From: Chthoniobacteraceae bacterium | GTDB lineage: Bacteria; Verrucomicrobiota; Verrucomicrobiia; Chthoniobacterales; Chthoniobacteraceae | Assembly (NCBI GenBank): GCA_031409335.1 | Contig: JANNWY010000196.1 | Span: 32,001 to 96,000 of the forward strand | Reading direction: 5' to 3' | DNA: 64,000 nt | In this document: positions 31,140 through 61,956 of the stretch, piece by piece | Position numbering within the stretch: position 1 is the stretch's first letter | How the letters are laid out: each line of letters begins with the position of its first letter | The notes under the pieces: model-generated | The model's input: the letters and a program-made list of their open reading frames with translations, nothing else | Told to the model about the DNA's origin: nothing | Database searches by the model: none | Translations under genes and position numbers: made by a program

Positions 31140-32408
31140 ATGAAAGTTCTCGTGATCGGCAGCGGCGGGCGTGAGCACGCGCTTGTCTGGAAACTGAAAA
31201 AGTCGCCGCGCGTTTCCGCGATTTTTTGTGCGCCGGGAAATGCGGGGATCGCGCGGATTGCGACGTGCGTGTCGGTCAAAGTGACCGATCACGACGGGTT
31301 GCTGAAATTCGCGCGCGATGAGGAAATCGGGCTCACGGTGGTCGGGCCGGATGATGTGCTCGCGGCGGGGATCGTCGATCTTTTCGAGGCGAATGGGCTG
31401 CGCATTTTCGGGCCGACGAAAGCGGCGGCGCGGCTCGAATCGTCGAAGGTTTTTGCGAAGGAATTTATGCAGCGGCATGGGTTGCCGACGGCGCGCTCGG
31501 GGAATTTTTCGGACAGCGACGAGGCGCGGAAATTTGTGCGCGGGATGGCGTTTCCCGTTGTGGTGAAGGCGGACGGCCTGGCGCTGGGGAAGGGCGTGAT
31601 CATCGCGCAGGATTTGGCGGAGGCCGACGCGGCGATCGGCGACATCATGGATGCGCGGAAGTTTGGCGACGCGGGTGCGCGCGTGGTGATCGAGGAATTT
31701 CTCTCGGGCGAAGAGTGCTCGATCCATGCGCTGGTCGATGGCGCGAGTTACCTGCTTTTCCCCGGCGCGCAGGATCACAAACGCGCGCTCGACGGCGATC
31801 TCGGGCCGAACACCGGCGGGATGGGCACGTTCAGTCCGCCCGCGAAATTGCTCACGCCGGAAATGGAAACGCGGGTGCGGCGCGAGATTCTCGATCCGTT
31901 TATCGCCGGGCTCGCGAAGGATGGCATTCGTTATCACGGGATGCTTTTTCCCGGACTGATGATCGACGCGGAAGGGCCGAAGTTGCTCGAGTTCAACTGC
32001 CGCTTCGGCGACCCGGAAACGCAGGTGCTGCTACCACGACTCGAAAGCGATTTGGTGGATTTGTTTGATGCGACCATCGACGGGCGGCTCGCGGAGATGG
32101 AGGCGAAATGGTCGGCGCAATCCGCTGTTTGCGTGGTGATGGCGTCGGGCGGGTATCCGGGCGACTACGAGAAGGGCAAGGTGATCGACGGGCTCGATGC
32201 GGCTGGCGAAACGACGACCGTTTTCCACGCGGGGACGCGGCTCGAAAATGGGCGCGTCGTGACGGCGGGGGGACGCGTGCTTGGCGTCACTGCGCTGGCC
32301 GGCGATCTCGCGGCGGCGCGGACGCGGGCCTACGATGCAGTCGCGCAAATTCATTTCGAGGGAGCGCAGTTTCGCCGCGATATTGCCGCGAAAGGTCTCG
32401 GGCTTTAA
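31140..32408 (+). CDS. purD: Phosphoribosylamine--glycine ligase
   Basis: MKVLVIGSGGREHAL, VKADGLALGKGV, QDHKR, GPNTGGMG, EFNCRFGDPETQ. Confidence 0.98.
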   Translation: MKVLVIGSGGREHALVWKLKKSPRVSAIFCAPGNAGIARIATCVSVKVTDHDGLLKFARDEEIGLTVVGPDDVLAAGIVDLFEANGLRIFGPTKAAARLESSKVFAKEFMQRHGLPTARSGNFSDSDEARKFVRGMAFPVVVKADGLALGKGVIIAQDLAEADAAIGDIMDARKFGDAGARVVIEEFLSGEECSIHALVDGASYLLFPGAQDHKRALDGDLGPNTGGMGTFSPPAKLLTPEMETRVRREILDPFIAGLAKDGIRYHGMLFPGLMIDAEGPKLLEFNCRFGDPETQVLLPRLESDLVDLFDATIDGRLAEMEAKWSAQSAVCVVMASGGYPGDYEKGKVIDGLDAAGETTTVFHAGTRLENGRVVTAGGRVLGVTALAGDLAAARTRAYDAVAQIHFEGAQFRRDIAAKGLGL

Positions 32409-49165: not shown

Positions 49166-49969
49166 TTACGCGGAGCGGCGGCGCCGCGAAAACATCGCCA
49201 GACTTGAGACCACGAGCAGCATCACGCTGCCCGGTTCTGGAACCGCGACATTTGCATTTCCGGGTGAGATCGTCTCGGTGCCGGTCGTAACGAAGGTCGC
49301 TTGGCCCGGAGTCGGGTCCGCAGTGTAAGGACCGCCGGGGTTTGTGCCCACGACATCGGTGGCCTGCCACTGGTTCGTCGTTCCATCTCGAAAGAGCACG
49401 TCGGAGGTGAAGGTGAAGGTCGGCGAAGGCCCGCCAATATTCAGGAAGCCGAGTTCATCGGCATAGCCGACATTGGCGCCTCCATCATTTTCAAGAAGAC
49501 CAATTCCGTCGATGACGCTCGCCCATGGGAATGCGTCGAGCGTTCCATCGTTGTTCGTATCGAGATCCTGAGCCAGCGCACCCGTAAATCCCGAGACAAG
49601 CAGGTAAGTCTGGGAGCCATTTTCAATGTCGGGTATGAAGTCGGCGACGTTGACGACGGTCGCCGGGTTTGGTGCGGGGTTGATCACCGCAGCGCTGTCG
49701 CGCCAGAGGAAAAGCCCGTTCGTGCCCGTGCTGAATGCGCCAAGGTTTAACACGAAATCAATCGGCCCGGGAGTGGCACCGTCCCCTTCGATGCCGATCA
49801 AAGTGAGTCCGGTCAAACTTTCCGCTCCGCCTGTCGTGCTGTAGATTTCGATGAATTCCTGCCCATTGTCGGGGCCTGGCGGATTGATGAAGATTTCGTT
49901 CAGTTGAATCGCGGCGTGGCTCGTGGTGGCGGCGGCAATGGATGCGAGTGAGAAGATGATGTTTTTCAT
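49166..49969 (-). CDS. PEP-CTERM surface protein with lamin-tail-like domain
   Basis: Signal peptide, IQLNEIFINPPGPDNGQEFIEI, C-terminal VPEPGSVMLLVVSSLAMFSRRRR. Confidence 0.9.
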   Translation of the reverse strand: MKNIIFSLASIAAATTSHAAIQLNEIFINPPGPDNGQEFIEIYSTTGGAESLTGLTLIGIEGDGATPGPIDFVLNLGAFSTGTNGLFLWRDSAAVINPAPNPATVVNVADFIPDIENGSQTYLLVSGFTGALAQDLDTNNDGTLDAFPWASVIDGIGLLENDGGANVGYADELGFLNIGGPSPTFTFTSDVLFRDGTTNQWQATDVVGTNPGGPYTADPTPGQATFVTTGTETISPGNANVAVPEPGSVMLLVVSSLAMFSRRRRSA

Positions 49970-50142
49970 GTGATGGGTTGATGGTGAGTCTGGGAGCGGG
50001 CGTGAATTCAATTGAGCCGTGTGGCGTTTTCTGGACGCTGTTGAAAAGACCGCGCGCCAATCGTGTGACGGTTGGATGACAGCCAATTCCACCGCGACTC
50101 CGCGCTGGTCAGCGGATGTGAAAGGCGGAACACTTGGCGCTG

Positions 50143-54935: not shown

Positions 54936-57008
54936 ATGTTGGACCCTCGCCAAATGCACGTGATCCCCACCTTTCTCAGACGGTTCATCAGCGCGGGACT
55001 CGCGCTCGCTTTTCCCGCGACCGGCGACGCCGGCGGCTCGCTCCCGGCTGGCTTCAGCGAATCCGTCTTGGTCTCCGGCCTCACTCAGCCGGTGAGCATC
55101 GCGTGGGCGCCGGATGGCAGCCAGCGGCTCTTCGTCACCGAGAAAGCTGGCGGCATTCGCGTGATCCGAAATGGCGCGCCGCTCGCGACCCCGTTCGCCA
55201 TTTTTCCTCAGCTCTACACGCAGAGCGAATGCGGCGTCCTCGGGCTGTGCTTCGATCCAAATTACGTCGCGAACCGCCACGTGTATGTCTTCGTCACGAT
55301 CTCCGCTTCGGAGCAGCGCATCGTGCGTTTCACCGATGTCGGAAACCGCGGCACCGAGCGCACGAATATCCTGACGGGCTTGCCGACGCTCGGCGTGAAC
55401 CACAACGGCGGCGCGCTGGGCTTTGGCCACGATGGAAAACTGTACTGGGCAATCGGCGACAACGGCGCGAAGCGCGGGGTCGATGGCGATCTGGCGAGCC
55501 TCGCGGCGAAAGTGGGGCGCGCGAATGCGGACGGCAGCGTGCCTTTGGGCAATCCCTTCGCCGACGGCTCCGGGCCGAATAACGACTACATTTGGGCGAC
55601 GGGTTTTCGCAATCCGTTCACGATGACTTTCCAGCCGCGCTCAGGAAAACTCTGGCTGAATGTGGTCGGGTCGAATGCCGAGGGACAGACCGTTCCGAAC
55701 AGCGGCCCTGGCTACGAGCAGATCTTCGCGCTCAATGCGGGCGAAGACGGCGGCTACGATGACTACGAGGGAAACCAGCCGAATGGCAGCCGCTACAACA
55801 CGCCCTTCGCGCGGCCCTTTGCGCATCCGGCTTTGCAGTATAGAACGAGGCCGTTGACCGGCGGCGCGGTGGGCGTGCAGACGCCTGTTCAGGTGCTCGG
55901 GATTTCGCGCTCGACCGGCGTGGATGTCGTTCTGACCGCCACGCCCCATCCGTATTTCACGGGAAACGTCGTGCGGATCACCGGCACAACCGACGCGACT
56001 TTCGACCGCACGTTCGTGGTTCGATCGGTGCCGAGTGCGACGACGTTCACCGCGTTCGATGCCGGAGCCGATGGCAGCGCGAGCGGCGGACAGGCGGCGG
56101 CGCTCTCCTTTGGCAGCAGCATCACGGGCGGCACATTTTATGACAGCAGCGCTTTCCCGGCTGGATCCCGAGGCAACTTTTTCTTCGGCGATTTCACCAG
56201 CGGCCTGCTGATCCGCGCGAAAGTCAATGAAAGGGGCAAAACCTCCGATGTTTCAGTCTTCAGCACGGGCCAGGGCTCGCCCGTCGATCTCGCGGTCGGG
56301 CCGGATGGCGCGCTTTACGTTGCCGACTTCGCCGCGGGAGCCATCCGCCGGATCGCGTGGACGCAAGCGCCCGCCGACCTCCTCGTCACGCCCACCGTTT
56401 TCAAAATGCGCGAAGGCGGACAAGCAAACTTCGCCGTGCGGCTCGGCAGCGCGCCGATCGTCCCGGTCGTCGTGACGACGCACGGCGCGTCGCAAAATCA
56501 AAACGCGGTCGTCACCGCGGGTGAAATGCTCACCTTCAACGCGACGAACTGGAACGTCCCGCAGCCCGTCACGATCGCCGCCGCCACCGACGCGGACGAC
56601 GATGACGAAAGCAGCGAGTTCGTTCTCACCGCGCCGGGACTCGCGGCGGAGACGGTGAGCGTGAGCATCACGGACACGAGCGCTGAAGCGCCGCTGCTTT
56701 CGGTGAATACTTTGACCATCAATGAAGGCAGCGGCGGCAATGTTTTTGTGAGCCTGCCGCAGCGACCCGCGGGCAATGTGACGCTCAGCGTGCGGCGCAC
56801 TTTGGGAATCGCCGCGCGCGTCGTCCACGGTGGGGCGCTCGTGTTCACTCCGGCAAATTTTGCGACGCCTCAGCGCGTTACGATTTACGCGAATCAGGAC
56901 GTGAATACGCGGGATGCGGTCGTGCGTTTCATCATCGGCGGCCGCGGCTACACGGCGCGCGGGATCACCGTCAACGCGCTCGACAACGATCCGCTGCGCG
57001 CGCCTTGA
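54936..57008 (+). CDS. PQQ-dependent sugar dehydrogenase (GSDH-like) with two C-terminal Calx-beta-like repeats
   Basis: GLTQPVSIAWAPDG, ECGVLGLCFDP, NHNGGALGFGHDGKLY, IWATGFRNPF, GPDGALYV; repeats LTFNATNWNVPQPVTI and LVFTPANFATPQRVTI. Start may be 54954. Confidence 0.88.
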   Translation: MLDPRQMHVIPTFLRRFISAGLALAFPATGDAGGSLPAGFSESVLVSGLTQPVSIAWAPDGSQRLFVTEKAGGIRVIRNGAPLATPFAIFPQLYTQSECGVLGLCFDPNYVANRHVYVFVTISASEQRIVRFTDVGNRGTERTNILTGLPTLGVNHNGGALGFGHDGKLYWAIGDNGAKRGVDGDLASLAAKVGRANADGSVPLGNPFADGSGPNNDYIWATGFRNPFTMTFQPRSGKLWLNVVGSNAEGQTVPNSGPGYEQIFALNAGEDGGYDDYEGNQPNGSRYNTPFARPFAHPALQYRTRPLTGGAVGVQTPVQVLGISRSTGVDVVLTATPHPYFTGNVVRITGTTDATFDRTFVVRSVPSATTFTAFDAGADGSASGGQAAALSFGSSITGGTFYDSSAFPAGSRGNFFFGDFTSGLLIRAKVNERGKTSDVSVFSTGQGSPVDLAVGPDGALYVADFAAGAIRRIAWTQAPADLLVTPTVFKMREGGQANFAVRLGSAPIVPVVVTTHGASQNQNAVVTAGEMLTFNATNWNVPQPVTIAAATDADDDDESSEFVLTAPGLAAETVSVSITDTSAEAPLLSVNTLTINEGSGGNVFVSLPQRPAGNVTLSVRRTLGIAARVVHGGALVFTPANFATPQRVTIYANQDVNTRDAVVRFIIGGRGYTARGITVNALDNDPLRAP

Positions 57009-57080
57009 TTCCGCAAGATTGCGCTTGTCGGCCCGATGTCCGCCCCTACTCTCCGCCGCAGTTCTTTGCGAGTCATAGTC

Positions 57081-57332
57081 AGTGAATGGATGAAAGGAAT
57101 TCCGTGAGAATCGGAAACAGTTGCGCTGCTGTAACTGGATACGACTTCCCAATGCCAATCTCTTAAAACCGATTCGTCGGTCGCGGAGGTGAAGGCGGGA
57201 AGGAGGTGTGTGGAGACCGGGTGACCGGGCTTCGCCGAATGCCAGAAGTCAGAACATTTCCACCGTTCACTCTCATTCGTCCCCGCGTGTGCGGGCAGGC
57301 GAAAAACCTTCTTCGCAAGAAAGAAGAATGAG
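57081..57332 (+). promoter_or_regulatory. Cobalamin (B12) riboswitch
   Basis: Core aaaggaa-ttccg-tgagaat-cggaa-a-cag-ttgcg-ctg-ctgtaa; ctgg/ccag and cttccc/gggaag stems; B12-box-like gccagaagtcagaacatttcc; P1 agtgaatgg (57081-57089) / ccgttcact (57263-57271). Loop ttgcg (57121-57125) is complementary to cgcaa (57314-57318) in the loop of hairpin cttctt/aagaag, the L5-L13 kissing loop. Confidence 0.88.
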
Positions 57333-57408
57333 GGCACCACATCGCTCGCCGCGCGGCATTCGCCGTCGCGTCGTGGGTTGGTCTCTCCATCACAAACAAG
57401 AGACATCC

Positions 57409-58209
57409 ATGAAAATGAAATCCATCGCCGTCGCGGGCATCCTCGCGTCGGTTTCCATCGTCAACGCAACCGCCGCCGTCATCGACTTCGACGACCTCAC
57501 CGTGCCACTGAGTGGCTACGAAAACGGGGCGAATCTCGCGGGCGGCTTCACCAGCCGGGGCGCGGGCTTTAACAATTCCTACGAGAGCATGTTTGGCTCG
57601 TGGGACGGGTTTGCCTACTCGACCAACGGCAATACCACGACGGCCGGCTTCCTGAATCAATACAGCGTCTTCACTGGCGGCGGCAGCGATGCGAACGGCA
57701 GCGTCGTGGCGGGCAATGTGTTTGCGCTCGGCTTCGTGGGATTCACCGTGCCGGCGATCTCGCTCGCGGCGGATCAATCGCGCCCGCTTTCGCTGCGCGT
57801 GACGAATACGACCTACGCGGCGCTTTCCATGGCGAATGGCGACGCGTTTTCAAAAAAGTTCGGTGGCGTCAGCGGCAATGATCCCGACTTTTTCAAACTC
57901 ACCGTGACCGCGCTGGATGCGAGCGATGCGCTGATCGGGACGCTGGATGTCTTCCTCGCCGACTTCCGTTTTGCCGACAACTCGCAGGACTACATCCTGG
58001 ATACTTGGACGGCAGTGGACCTTTCGTCGTTCGGCAGCGGAGTGGGTGAATTGCAATTCACGCTCGCCTCTTCCGACAACGGCCTGTTTGGCATGAATAC
58101 ACCCGCGTATTTCGCGATCGATAACGTCGTCGCCGTGCCGGAGCCGGGCGCGGTCGCACTCTTGCTGACGGCCCTCGCCGCGATCGGTTCACGCCGTCGT
58201 TGGAGCTGA
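57409..58209 (+). CDS. DUF4465 (BtuJ-like) PEP-CTERM surface protein
   Basis: Signal peptide, IDFDDL, SWDGFAYS, NQYS, VTNTTYAALSMANGDAFSKKFGG, DFFKL, LADFR, WTAVDLS, SSDNGLFGMNTPAYFAIDN, VPEPG-TM-RRRW. Confidence 0.9.
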   Translation: MKMKSIAVAGILASVSIVNATAAVIDFDDLTVPLSGYENGANLAGGFTSRGAGFNNSYESMFGSWDGFAYSTNGNTTTAGFLNQYSVFTGGGSDANGSVVAGNVFALGFVGFTVPAISLAADQSRPLSLRVTNTTYAALSMANGDAFSKKFGGVSGNDPDFFKLTVTALDASDALIGTLDVFLADFRFADNSQDYILDTWTAVDLSSFGSGVGELQFTLASSDNGLFGMNTPAYFAIDNVVAVPEPGAVALLLTALAAIGSRRRWS

Positions 58210-58211
58210 AA

Positions 58212-59489
58212 ATGAAAGCCACCCCGCTCCATCTGCTGGCGCCCGCCGTGATGTTTTTTCACGGCGGGCTGCTCGCGGGTCCGTACTCCGCGGGCCTGAA
58301 CGATCCGGCGAACGCGAGTGATGCGCCGGTGCCGGGATTTGTGGGGCTCGACGGGATCGGCGGCGTGCCGTTTGAGGACGAATTTGGCGAGCCCATCAAT
58401 GCGCGAAACTATGTGAATCCGCTTTTTTTTGGCTGGGCGTCCTCGTTTTCCGGGTACTCGCGCCCGGCCGACGTAAGCCAATTTTGGGGCAATGCGGGAA
58501 AATCACTCGGGCCGGTGACGGGCAACAATATCCACATCGTTTCCCTCGGCGATCTGAGCGCCGCGCAGATCGGCGGCGGCGCGCTGCCGGGCTCGATCAC
58601 GCTGCATTTTGCGAATCCGATTCGCAATCTGACCGGCGCGGATTTTACCGTTTTTGAAAATGCGCTGATCGAGATCGGCAGCGGGATTTTCGGTGAACTC
58701 GGATACGTCGAGGCGTCGAGCGACGGCGTGAATTTCGTCCGCTTTCCCTCGGCCTCGCTCACCGCGGCCGCAGTCGGCGCGTATGGCACGTTTGATCCGA
58801 CGGATGTCTTCAATCTCGCTGGTAAACATGTGAACGGGGACGGCGATTCGTGGGGCACGCCGTTCGATCTCACGGCGGTCGGGCTCGCGAGCGCGAGTCA
58901 CATTCGCATCGTGGATATTCCGGGTAGCGGCGCGTTTCGCGACAGCGCGAACCGCCCGATTTACGATGCGTGGGTGACGTTCGGCTCGGGCGGCTTCGAT
59001 CTGGAAGCGGTCGGCGCGATTTCGCGCGCGATCGCGTTCGATCAATGGCAAACCGTGCGCGGACTCGTCGGCGCGCAGCGCGGTGCGGCCGTGGATTTGG
59101 ACCGGGACGGTGTTCCGAATTTCCTCGAATACGCCTTCGCGCGACTACCCGATCGCGTGGACGAAACTCCGACTCCCACGACCACGGAAATCGCCGCCGG
59201 GCGACTCGTGATCACCTTTACCCGCGATGAACGCGCGTCCGATCTCGTGTATGAAGTGCAGGCCGCGAACGATCTCGCCGCAAACGCGTGGACAACGATC
59301 GCGCAAAGCACGGCAGGCGCGCCGACCGTGGCTGCGGGCGCGTTCACGCCGGCGATCACCGAGACGAGTGCGAGCGCGATCGCGAGCGTCGGCGTGCTGC
59401 GCAAAGTGCGCGTCGCGGATGTGCAGACCGTGGCCGGAAATGCGCGTCGCTTTTTACGCATCAAAGTGACAAGCATCCCGGTGCCATGA
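58212..59489 (+). CDS. Exported cell-surface protein, BtuH-like domain plus verrucomicrobial C-terminal domain
   Basis: Signal-like N-terminus; IVSLGD...GSITLHFANPIRNLTGADFTVFENA...ELGYVEASSDG...GTPFDL...HIRIVDIPG...GFDLEAVG; then DLDRDGVPNFLEYAF...RRFLRIKVT. Confidence 0.75.
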   Translation: MKATPLHLLAPAVMFFHGGLLAGPYSAGLNDPANASDAPVPGFVGLDGIGGVPFEDEFGEPINARNYVNPLFFGWASSFSGYSRPADVSQFWGNAGKSLGPVTGNNIHIVSLGDLSAAQIGGGALPGSITLHFANPIRNLTGADFTVFENALIEIGSGIFGELGYVEASSDGVNFVRFPSASLTAAAVGAYGTFDPTDVFNLAGKHVNGDGDSWGTPFDLTAVGLASASHIRIVDIPGSGAFRDSANRPIYDAWVTFGSGGFDLEAVGAISRAIAFDQWQTVRGLVGAQRGAAVDLDRDGVPNFLEYAFARLPDRVDETPTPTTTEIAAGRLVITFTRDERASDLVYEVQAANDLAANAWTTIAQSTAGAPTVAAGAFTPAITETSASAIASVGVLRKVRVADVQTVAGNARRFLRIKVTSIPVP

Positions 59490-60310
59490 GCGCGCGCGCA
59501 CAACGGAGATCAGCACAGCCACGAATCGGTGCGTTCACGTTGGTCGAGTTGCTCGTGGTGATTGGTCTCATCGCGGTGCTGGCCGCGGTGCTCCTGCCTA
59601 TCCTTCATGCCGCAAAGGTGAGTTCGTACGCGGCGCGCAGCACGAACAGCCTGCGTCAACTCGTGGCCGCAAACATCACGTATTCCGCGGAGAAAGGCTT
59701 CTACGTTCCCGCGGACAACCGCCGGAACAATCGGCGCTGGCACGGTGGCCGCACTTCGCCGAAAGAGCCATTCGATCCGGCGCGGGGATTCCTCGCGGAG
59801 TATCTGGGAAAATCGCGCGCGGTCACGCCGGACCCCTTTTTCAGCGACATGCTGAAGGACGGAAAGACCTTCGAGGAAGGCACGGGTGGCTATGGCTACA
59901 ACGCGTCTTACGTCGGCGGCACTCCCGAGTGGGGGTGGAATCCGGACGGGACAAGGCAATCCGCCGTGCCCGCGGCGATCGAGCGTCCGGCGACGACGAT
60001 GATGTTTGCGACTTCCGCCTATGCGCGTGAAAACGGCGTGCAGGAGTATCCCTACGCCGAGCCGCCGTTCTGGGATTTCGGCGACGGCCCGGTCGCGCAT
60101 CGCCCGTCGCCGACAGTCCACTTTCGCTACAACGGGCGGGCGCTCGTCGGCTGGTGCGACGGCCATGTGAGTTCCGAAGAAAGAGTCGTGCGCGCGGACG
60201 GCGAAAATCCACACTCGGGAAATGCGGAGGCGCAGAATCTCGGGTGGTTCGGCTCGGACGAGGAGAACGGCTTTTGGAATCCGCGCCGAGTCGGCCCCAG
60301 GGGGCGCTGA
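59486..60310 (+). CDS. Type IV prepilin-like protein with N-methylation motif and H-X9-DG-type C-terminus (DUF1559-like)
   Basis: GAFTLVELLVVIGLIAVLAAVLLP, STNSLRQL, GYGYN, C-terminal HFRYNGRALVGWCDGHV. ATGA-coupled to the upstream gene. Confidence 0.9.
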   Translation: MSARAQRRSAQPRIGAFTLVELLVVIGLIAVLAAVLLPILHAAKVSSYAARSTNSLRQLVAANITYSAEKGFYVPADNRRNNRRWHGGRTSPKEPFDPARGFLAEYLGKSRAVTPDPFFSDMLKDGKTFEEGTGGYGYNASYVGGTPEWGWNPDGTRQSAVPAAIERPATTMMFATSAYARENGVQEYPYAEPPFWDFGDGPVAHRPSPTVHFRYNGRALVGWCDGHVSSEERVVRADGENPHSGNAEAQNLGWFGSDEENGFWNPRRVGPRGR

Positions 60311-60318
60311 TCGGGGCT

Positions 60319-61956
60319 TCAGGCTGCGACCGCCGACTGCGATTCCTCCGCGCCGGACGCCACCAGCACGGCGCGGCGCAACTCGGCGGCGCTGACGGGT
60401 TTTGCGACGATGAGGGCGATGCCCTCGGGCAAGGTTCCGCGCGCCTGCATTTCATCGCCAAATCCGGTCAGCAAAATCACCGGCGTGCCGGGGGCGGTGC
60501 CGTGGATGGCGCGCGCGAGTTGCTCGCCGCTCATTCCCGGCATGGATTGGTCAGTGACGACGAGATCGAATCGCGCGGGATTGAATTTCGCCATCGCATC
60601 GTTTCCGTCGCACGCGATTTCCACGGAGTGGCCGTCGGCGCGCAGATATTCGGCGATCAGTTCGCAGATGATTTCCTGATCGTCGGCGACGAGGATGCGG
60701 AGGTTCCGTGAAGTCCCGGTTTCCACCGATTCCACGCAGACGTGCGATTGCGGGGCGGCCAGCGGCAGGCTGATGTGAAAGGTCGTGCCGCGGCCGATCT
60801 CGCTCGTGATTTCGATCGTTCCGCCATGCCGCTGGATGATGCCATACACCACCGACAGGCCGAGCCCGGTTCCGCGTTCGCCCTTCGTCGTGAAGAACGG
60901 TTCGAGACAGCGCGCGCGATCTTCTTCGCTCATGCCCGTGCCGGAATCGGCCACCGCGACAGTCGCGAATTCCCCCTGCATTCCCGTGGTCGCGACGATC
61001 TTCCCGCCATTCGGCATCGCATCGACCGCGTTGAAAATCAGATTGGTCAAAACCTCGCGCAACTCCGCCGCATTCCCGGCGATCGGCGCGGATGCCTGCA
61101 GGTTCGTGAGCACTTCGATTTGCACGCCGTCCGAGCGCGCCTTGCCTTTCCATTTCGGCGCGGTGAGCGAGACGGCTTGGGTCACGGTCTCGTTGAGATC
61201 GACGGGCACGCGCACGTCGTTGCACGTCGCAGGCCGGTAAAATTCCCGCAGCCGGCTGACGACGTGCGTCGCATCCTGCGCGGCGGCGATCATGTGGCGC
61301 AGATACGCGATTTCGCGCTCCGGCCCGCTTTGCAGCATGTATGGGAGCAGCAGCTCGCCGTAGCCGAGCACCATCGTCAGCGCGTTGTTGAAATCGTGCG
61401 CGATGCCGCCGGCCATCATGCCGAGCGCGCTCAGGCGTTCCTGCTTCACCACATGCTCCTGCGTCGAGCGGAGTTCCGCGAGCAATTCCTCCAGCCGCGC
61501 CGTCCGTTCGCGGACCAACTCTTCCAGACCGAGGTTCTGCTTTTGCAATTCAAGATGCAGAAAGCGGTTTTCGAGCAGGTTGTTGATGCGCAGGACGACT
61601 TCAAAATTATCCAGCGGCTTGGTGACGAGATCCTTCGCGCCAGCGGCGAGCGCGCGGCGTTTGGTGTCGATCGTGACATCCGCGGTGAGCACGAGGATCG
61701 GCAGATAATCCTCGGGATCGACGGCGGCCTTCAATTGCTCGATCACCGCGAAACCATCGAGGTGCGGCATGTGCAGATCGAGCAGCACGAGGTCCGGGCG
61801 AAATTCAAAATACAGCGCCAGCGCCGTCCGCGAATCCGTCGTGCTTTTCACCGCCGCGCAGCCAAACATTTCCAGCACGCGTTCCAGCAACCGGATGTTC
61901 GACGGCTCATCATCGACGATGAGGACGCGGGCCTTGTTGAGCAATGGTTGAGGCAT
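60319..61956 (-). CDS. Cytoplasmic hybrid histidine kinase (REC-HisKA-HATPase-REC)
   Basis: LIVDDE..DLVLLDLHMP, GIAHDFNNAL, NLIFNAVDAM, DSGTGM, FFTTK..GTGLGL, LVADD..DLVVTDQSMP. Confidence 0.95.
   Translation of the reverse strand: MPQPLLNKARVLIVDDEPSNIRLLERVLEMFGCAAVKSTTDSRTALALYFEFRPDLVLLDLHMPHLDGFAVIEQLKAAVDPEDYLPILVLTADVTIDTKRRALAAGAKDLVTKPLDNFEVVLRINNLLENRFLHLELQKQNLGLEELVRERTARLEELLAELRSTQEHVVKQERLSALGMMAGGIAHDFNNALTMVLGYGELLLPYMLQSGPEREIAYLRHMIAAAQDATHVVSRLREFYRPATCNDVRVPVDLNETVTQAVSLTAPKWKGKARSDGVQIEVLTNLQASAPIAGNAAELREVLTNLIFNAVDAMPNGGKIVATTGMQGEFATVAVADSGTGMSEEDRARCLEPFFTTKGERGTGLGLSVVYGIIQRHGGTIEITSEIGRGTTFHISLPLAAPQSHVCVESVETGTSRNLRILVADDQEIICELIAEYLRADGHSVEIACDGNDAMAKFNPARFDLVVTDQSMPGMSGEQLARAIHGTAPGTPVILLTGFGDEMQARGTLPEGIALIVAKPVSAAELRRAVLVASGAEESQSAVAA

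Follow-up and report, generated by a model that had tools for sequence, protein, structure and literature searches.

A cobalamin riboswitch operon of a Chthoniobacteraceae bacterium pairs two candidate surface binders with a prepilin that probably substitutes for BtuB

A 64,000-nucleotide (nt) stretch of contig JANNWY010000196.1 from a Chthoniobacteraceae bacterium, positions 32,001 to 96,000 (the window, meaning the whole stretch analyzed), carries an operon in which a cobalamin (vitamin B12) riboswitch is followed by genes for a DUF4465 protein, a BtuH-fold protein, and a type IV prepilin-like protein. To our knowledge, the TonB-dependent receptor BtuB is the only described route of B12 across an outer membrane. 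Comparison of the gene content of Verrucomicrobiota genomes indicates that the prepilin is very probably a functional alternative to BtuB. The riboswitch and the two binders are known parts, and the pilin step is the new part; added here are the BtuH fold of the second protein and the exchange of pilin and receptor beside the same binders. Because neither a B12-type receptor nor BtuF-BtuCD accompanies the operon, we rate it as a new kind of system, for which the mechanism given below is a proposal. We found no paper linking a riboswitch or cobalamin with a prepilin, DUF1559, or a pilin in bacteria of the Planctomycetes-Verrucomicrobia-Chlamydiae (PVC) group, although supplementary tables might hold a mention.

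Layout of the operon

The riboswitch and the three genes lie as follows (lengths in amino acids, aa):

57070..57281, + strand: cobalamin riboswitch aptamer (RF00174, matched over the full model; 43.6 bits, gathering threshold 31.5, E = 1.2e-7)
57409..58209, + strand: gene 1, 266 aa, DUF4465 (BtuJ family), signal-like N terminus, PEP-CTERM tail
58212..59489, + strand: gene 2, 425 aa, exported; BtuH-fold domain at about residues 22 to 274 plus a C-terminal domain without a named family
59486..60310, + strand: gene 3, 274 aa, type IV prepilin-like; B12-linked subfamily of H-X9-DG pilins, here Y215-X9-DG

An earlier interpretation made from the letters of the DNA (the sequence-only reading) had described a well-formed riboswitch, three tightly coupled genes, and a convergent gene closing the operon. 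All of this was reproduced: the aptamer scored over the Rfam gathering threshold, genes 1 and 2 are 2 nt apart, genes 2 and 3 overlap by ATGA, and the convergent gene, which encodes a sensor kinase/response regulator, has its end at 60319. The aptamer was the sole Rfam match in the window. A second RF00174 match was absent from the host genome (150 of 653 candidates scored), and an nhmmer riboswitch profile built here likewise found no second site there.

Pilin and receptor genomes

We searched 301 genomes of a Verrucomicrobiota phylum sample with a profile of the pilin head (E ≤ 1e-25) and with two profiles built here for B12-linked TonB receptors, A4 (E ≤ 1e-60) and A8. The pilin was found in 97 genomes, which would put it in BtuB's place in about one-third of the sample. 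By hand tally across the profile searches, 5 genomes held the pilin together with a receptor of either clade, 92 the pilin only, 129 a receptor only, and 75 neither; a B12-type receptor thus occurred in 5 of the 97 pilin genomes versus 129 of the 204 others. With A4 alone the counts were 3 with both, 94 with pilin only, 117 with receptor only, and 87 with neither (3, 40, 117, and 72 once families f20 and f27 were set aside). Two pilin-bearing families matched neither receptor profile. In the host's order (126 genomes, A4 only), the pilin occurred in 15 and the receptor in 41 with no overlap, for which the Fisher p of 0.0025 is too strong because the genomes are kin; at a looser 1e-50, one genome held both. 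Both types occurred inside two genera (g158 and g183) and inside two families (f1 and f7).

The genes around the receptor point the same way. In pilin-less genomes the riboswitch heads a TonB receptor, for which TIGR01779 was the best model in six of eight cases. Twenty fetched loci included seven with the order DUF4465-receptor-BtuH-like and four more in which the receptor adjoins the BtuH-like gene. A BtuH-like gene was present in 47 genomes, again by hand tally: 27 with the pilin, 16 with an A8 receptor flanked by binders, none with both, and 4 with neither. Judged by gene order, the exchange is functional, not positional, since the receptor sits between the binders and the pilin after them. 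The sequence-only reading had placed the pilin in the transporter's slot and had suggested checking for a correlation with the absence of btuB. The swap of roles and the correlation are backed by these genome comparisons; the position is not, the pilin standing 3' of the binders.

Pilin loci in relatives

The named relatives were Chthoniobacterales and other Verrucomicrobiota. Among the 40 best pilin loci of a first search, 26 had a BtuH-like gene and 8 a btuF-like gene nearby, and the Rfam switch was over threshold at 20 of the 37 loci scanned. Pilins held out of the profile, many of them kin of its training rows, were counted separately. Of their top 20, 17 were preceded by a cobalamin-clan match on the strand of the pilin (7 over gathering, the others at E ≤ 0.35); two more had btuF with the contig ending near, and one had nothing, so that 19 of 20 had a switch or btuF. 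In the 20 weaker held-out pilins we counted 10 with a switch, 4 with another B12-type neighbor, and 6 without B12 context. Twelve order-level pilin loci were fetched and one (L259) was left out as a duplicate of a training locus; 10 of the remaining 11 had an adjoining BtuH-like gene. Chance adjacency was rejected as an explanation.

The first gene of these loci varies: it encodes DUF4465, DUF4465 fused to a BtuH-like domain, another PEP-CTERM protein, or DUF4430. In families f20 and f27, no BtuH-like gene was found (0 of 48 genomes in f20, 0 of 21 in f27), and the pilin directly follows the riboswitch, often ahead of btuF-, btuC-, and btuD-like genes. The idea of a trio fixed as three genes was accordingly rejected, gene 1 being often replaced or fused. 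The pairing of riboswitch and pilin recurs, and the DUF4465 and BtuH-like partners are swapped or lost. On this comparison the pilin is the constant core of the predicted system, and the binders are optional.

Several variants were seen at these loci. A PEP-CTERM protein of 320 to 360 aa with at most weak beta-propeller matches stands first in place of DUF4465 (L003, 5592-6590; L007, 5508-6542; L010, 5648-6622; L064; L065; L068; L248; L260) and may be a further B12-binding family. A DUF4430 protein lies between riboswitch and pilin at L172 (921-1448). Tandem pairs of B12-subfamily pilins, possibly paralogues for different cobamides, occur at L088, L091, L146, L147, L148, and L173, the last with the riboswitch between the two. 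At L094 (5707-8732), a corrinoid methyltransferase gene and AcsV-like genes precede the pilin. Low-scoring sister pilins at L164, L167, L168, L169, L174, and L176 lack B12 context and perhaps have another ligand; some such loci share a recurring small exported gene and a membrane gene.

Points against the substitution

Several observations weigh against the pilin as a stand-in for BtuB. The kinship of the genomes makes p-values too strong and leaves about four to six independent contrasts. Many genomes are incomplete metagenome-assembled genomes, and few candidates were scored per genome. The receptor profiles are home-made, no riboswitch-linked receptor reached the TIGR01779 cut-off (best, 248 versus 599.7), and a riboswitch was upstream of the A4 receptor in 21 of the 32 genomes checked. 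In four genomes (G023, G099, G163, and G269) the pilin coexists with a receptor linked to a riboswitch or to btuF, and G077, with a related receptor, may be a fifth; with four to five genomes holding both, strict exclusion was rejected. The 75 to 87 genomes with neither gene, the six weaker pilins without B12 context, and the cassettes of G297, G222, G099, G246, and G249, ahead of which no riboswitch was found, also count against the substitution, as does the lack of a pilus assembly gene in the operon itself. Finally, none of five pairs of pilin and receptor loci from one genus had flanking genes in common, so in-place replacement is not supported.

B12 use and uptake genes of the host

The host genome (7.9 Mb, 98% complete) has MetH, and CobS was not found in it; the host seems to use B12 and to be unable to complete its synthesis, as far as gene content tells. 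Since the genome also encodes a short MetE-like protein, the host may be able to do without B12. The MetH gene (C279:17981-20725) covers the model except for its N-terminal quarter, and the enzyme appears to be split over two genes.

The sequence-only reading had noted that BtuB and BtuFCD are missing at the operon. This holds, and it extends to the whole genome, where we found no BtuB-like receptor, no PF01497 (BtuF) match, and no match to the btuF and btuC profiles built here. The genome contains seven PF00593 TonB-receptor matches, with heme, zinc, or siderophore models as their best matches. They reached at most 159 bits on one B12-linked profile and at most 90 on the other and had no riboswitch alongside. 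Four of them were placed in a tree, where they fell outside both B12-linked clades. No TonB receptor lies in the operon, and none of the B12-linked type is among the genome's receptors.

Parts for a filament are present: seven PilT-family genes over cut-off, seven secretin matches, and six T2SSF genes. Four exosortases, the enzymes for PEP-CTERM proteins, are encoded as well. The host also has one DUF6580 membrane-protein gene (C37:58904-59488), unlinked to the operon. In relatives, DUF6580 genes adjoin the switch or form part of the cassette (L003, 4577-5158; L183; L256; L262; L265), and one adjoins a receptor locus (L266). This recurrence beside cobalamin riboswitches of both kinds of loci makes DUF6580 a candidate for the inner-membrane B12 step; the protein had no PDB match.

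The three proteins and riboswitch control

Gene 3 matched the N_methyl family PF07963 (22.0 against a cut-off of 21.2) and fell just below that of TIGR02532 (16.0 against 16.3). It has the features of a class III signal, namely a basic leader, Phe+1, Glu+5, and a hydrophobic helix, with Ala, not Gly, at residue −1; Glu+5 is invariant across 96 subfamily rows. The prepilin assignment of the sequence-only reading is borne out by the Pfam match, and the DUF1559/SBP_bac_10 family (PF07596) that it had brought up gave no Pfam match at E ≤ 1. Gene 3 also missed TIGR04294 because Tyr215 replaces the motif His, which is found in most rows of the subfamily alignment; relative L072 passes that model. 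PF07596 was carried by 10 to 20% of the members of the Atlas neighbors of gene 3 at 0.96. The N-methylation motif and the C-terminal X9-DG motif are shared with the PVC prepilins of the H-X9-DG/SBP_bac_10 family (PMC8567305), which number at least 41 genes per Planctomycetales genome in that account. Unlike the wider family, which has no known function, the B12 subfamily is apparently tied to one ligand; it is well conserved and mostly present in one or two copies per genome (a single copy in the host). In the pilin head, 11 alignment columns hold an aromatic residue in 85% or more of 39 rows. The head had no PDB match and no structure in Atlas, and no relation was found between the pilin and BtuH profiles.

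Gene 1 scored 168.7 bits on PF14717 (DUF4465; cut-off 25; E = 2e-49). Its PEP-CTERM tail passed TIGR02595 (20.8, cut-off 16) and was below the cut-off of Pfam PF07589 (17.3 versus 20.7), so that both halves of the predicted DUF4465 PEP-CTERM architecture stood. The best PDB match was 9HMU (E = 3e-27), a crystal structure of the Coraliomargarita protein D5EK51 with cyanocobalamin bound (PMC13398666). Like D5EK51, gene 1 keeps the HI-loop TPAYF motif (NTPAYF at 230-235). NTTYA at 133-137 may correspond to the DE-helix Tyr, judging from the 9HMU alignment. Distant DUF4465 members, including one from Haloferula, have been shown to bind B12 (PMC13398666). B12 binding by verrucomicrobial DUF4465 is in this sense already published, for proteins that sequence comparison makes homologues of gene 1. 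That paper ties DUF4465 to TonB and ABC genes, and the words "pilin" and "PEP-CTERM" do not occur in its main text (PMC13398666). A further PEP-CTERM protein is encoded at 49166-50092 (− strand) of the window, and by motif the genome has about 141 PEP-CTERM-like open reading frames.

Gene 2 had no Pfam or NCBIfam match, and neither the single protein nor a 7-row profile matched anything in PDB by sequence. A 28-row profile matched 8BLW_B (the BtuH domain of BtuG1) at an E of 0.002 over 72 positions and left 7BIZ (BtuH2) unmatched. An AlphaFold 2 model of residues 22 to 274 built from the 28 rows (pLDDT 91) was compared with 48,161 chains in VIA, where 7BIZ ranked first (Z 13.2, root mean square deviation 2.7, 157 aligned) and 8BLW_B second (Z 12.4), the next unrelated chain having 10.4; Foldseek ranked 8BLW_B first (E = 1.3e-4). 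Structural identity to the BtuH structures was 17 to 20%. An earlier model from 7 rows (pLDDT 58) had given generic CBM32-like matches only, with BtuH tied for the top in VIA; the BtuH fold is common to CBM32 domains (PMC8941943). The modeled domain therefore carries the BtuH-type B12-binding fold, as the sequence-only reading had guessed, and gene 2 likely binds B12. Its C-terminal domain also occurs in other Verrucomicrobiota and has only unnamed Atlas neighbors. The PEP-CTERM anchoring once proposed for both binders thus holds for gene 1 and not for gene 2, which ends in this other domain.

One further element lies between the aptamer and gene 1:

57371..57412, + strand: candidate expression-platform hairpin, predicted, covering the ribosome-binding region and the first ATG of gene 1

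The hairpin has −19.5 kcal/mol and a z score of −2.29, and 1 of 200 shuffles was equally stable. No terminator-like site was found on the + strand. The start-codon hairpin and the missing terminator together suggest that control is probably translational. A sigma-70 promoter search at the operon found none.

Comparison with known systems

The Bacteroides Btu relay comprises BtuJ (DUF4465), BtuH, BtuG, BtuB, and BtuFCD (PMC13616437; PMC8941943). As in that relay, a cobalamin riboswitch, DUF4465, and a BtuH-fold surface protein share one locus here, and pilin-less Verrucomicrobiota flank a TonB receptor with the same two binder genes. Unlike the relay, the present operon has no TonB receptor, its constant partner is a prepilin, and PEP-CTERM or another C-terminal domain takes the place of lipoprotein anchors.

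B12 uptake of the E. coli type combines a riboswitch-btuB unit with BtuFCD (models TIGR01779, PRK03379, and PRK03784). The order riboswitch-pilin-btuF-btuC-btuD at L087, L088, and L092 parallels riboswitch-receptor-btuF-btuC at L128, L242, and L267, as in the E. coli-type order, except that the first gene encodes a prepilin of 260 to 280 aa and not a 22-strand barrel.

Pilin-type proteins take part in uptake in competence (DNA uptake) type IV pili and in the mucin-utilization pili of Akkermansia. The uptake role suggested here for a pilin, and retraction through a secretin, are borrowed from these systems. Unlike competence pili, the cargo would be a 1.3-kDa cofactor, control is by riboswitch, and the operon has no ComEA/ComEC-type partners.

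Proposed mechanism and alternatives

We lean, if only slightly, toward a retractile type IV filament, with the operon forming the outer half of a cobamide uptake route that does without TonB. If a prepilin is to replace a receptor, a filament like those of DNA uptake pili would be the simplest means. When B12 is scarce, the riboswitch would permit translation, and the exosortase-anchored DUF4465 protein and the BtuH-fold protein would bind and enrich cobamide at the surface. Once processed, the prepilin would join a shared type IV filament as a B12-specific minor or tip subunit. The aromatic-rich head of this subunit would take the cobamide, which would reach the periplasm through a secretin as PilT retracts the filament. 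Passage to the cytoplasm would be through BtuF-CD in many relatives and possibly through DUF6580 in the host, where B12 would then serve MetH. It is conceivable, if doubtful, that H-X9-DG/DUF1559 prepilins in general are interchangeable substrate-specific subunits of a nutrient-importing retractile filament, the B12 subfamily being the first with a known ligand. Such a ligand would be the first for a family that is very large and has no assigned function (PMC8567305), and one that is easy to assay, B12 being colored and growth on it selectable.

The main rival, which we consider unlikely, makes the pilin a periplasmic cobamide trap, its prepilin helix serving solely to anchor it in the inner membrane, that relays to BtuF or DUF6580 while a separate channel serves the outer membrane. 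Such a trap would suit a pilin often placed immediately 5' of btuF, an operon without assembly genes, and the finding of N_methyl plus SBP_bac_10 proteins in planctomycete membrane fractions (PMC8567305), and it would account for the genomes holding both pilin and receptor. It leaves unexplained that the outer-membrane receptor, and not BtuF, is what the pilin excludes, and the invariance of Glu+5 speaks against it.

The pilin could also be a dedicated type II secretion pseudopilin that exports or displays the binders without contacting B12. This would fit its tight coupling, at most Verrucomicrobiae loci, with the gene for the BtuH-like protein, the lineage-specific C-terminal domain of that binder, which could be a sorting signal, and the type II secretion parts in the genome. 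We regard it as improbable: in f20 and f27 the pilin follows the riboswitch where no BtuH-like gene was found, and the same binders stand beside TonB receptors without a pilin.

It is highly improbable that B12 enters by an unrecognized TonB receptor elsewhere, with the operon serving only to store B12 at the surface and the pilin as an adhesin or passenger. BtuJ1 is reportedly a reservoir, the host has its seven PF00593 matches with about 2% of the genome missing, and at least four relatives hold pilin and receptor together. The host receptors nevertheless score low, lie outside both clades, and have no riboswitch nearby, and a passenger pilin should show no association with the switch, with btuF, or with receptor loss.

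B12 riboswitches also control cobalt uptake, and L087 has a cbiM-like gene after pilin-btuFCD, but a pilin handling cobalt, or attachment to B12 producers, in place of cobamide transport is scarcely credible: its neighbors encode cobamide binders and BtuFCD-like proteins, and cobalt alone would not help a host in which CobS was not found.

Neighboring genes

A Glucose/sorbosone dehydrogenase-family protein is encoded at 54936-57008 of the window; its gene ends 62 nt 5' of the aptamer, and no operon link was seen. In some relatives a CWC/DUF5522 cysteine-rich gene follows the pilin (L007, 8531-9097), and the host has a similar gene at C14:35754-36164, away from the pilin and adjoining integrase-like genes.

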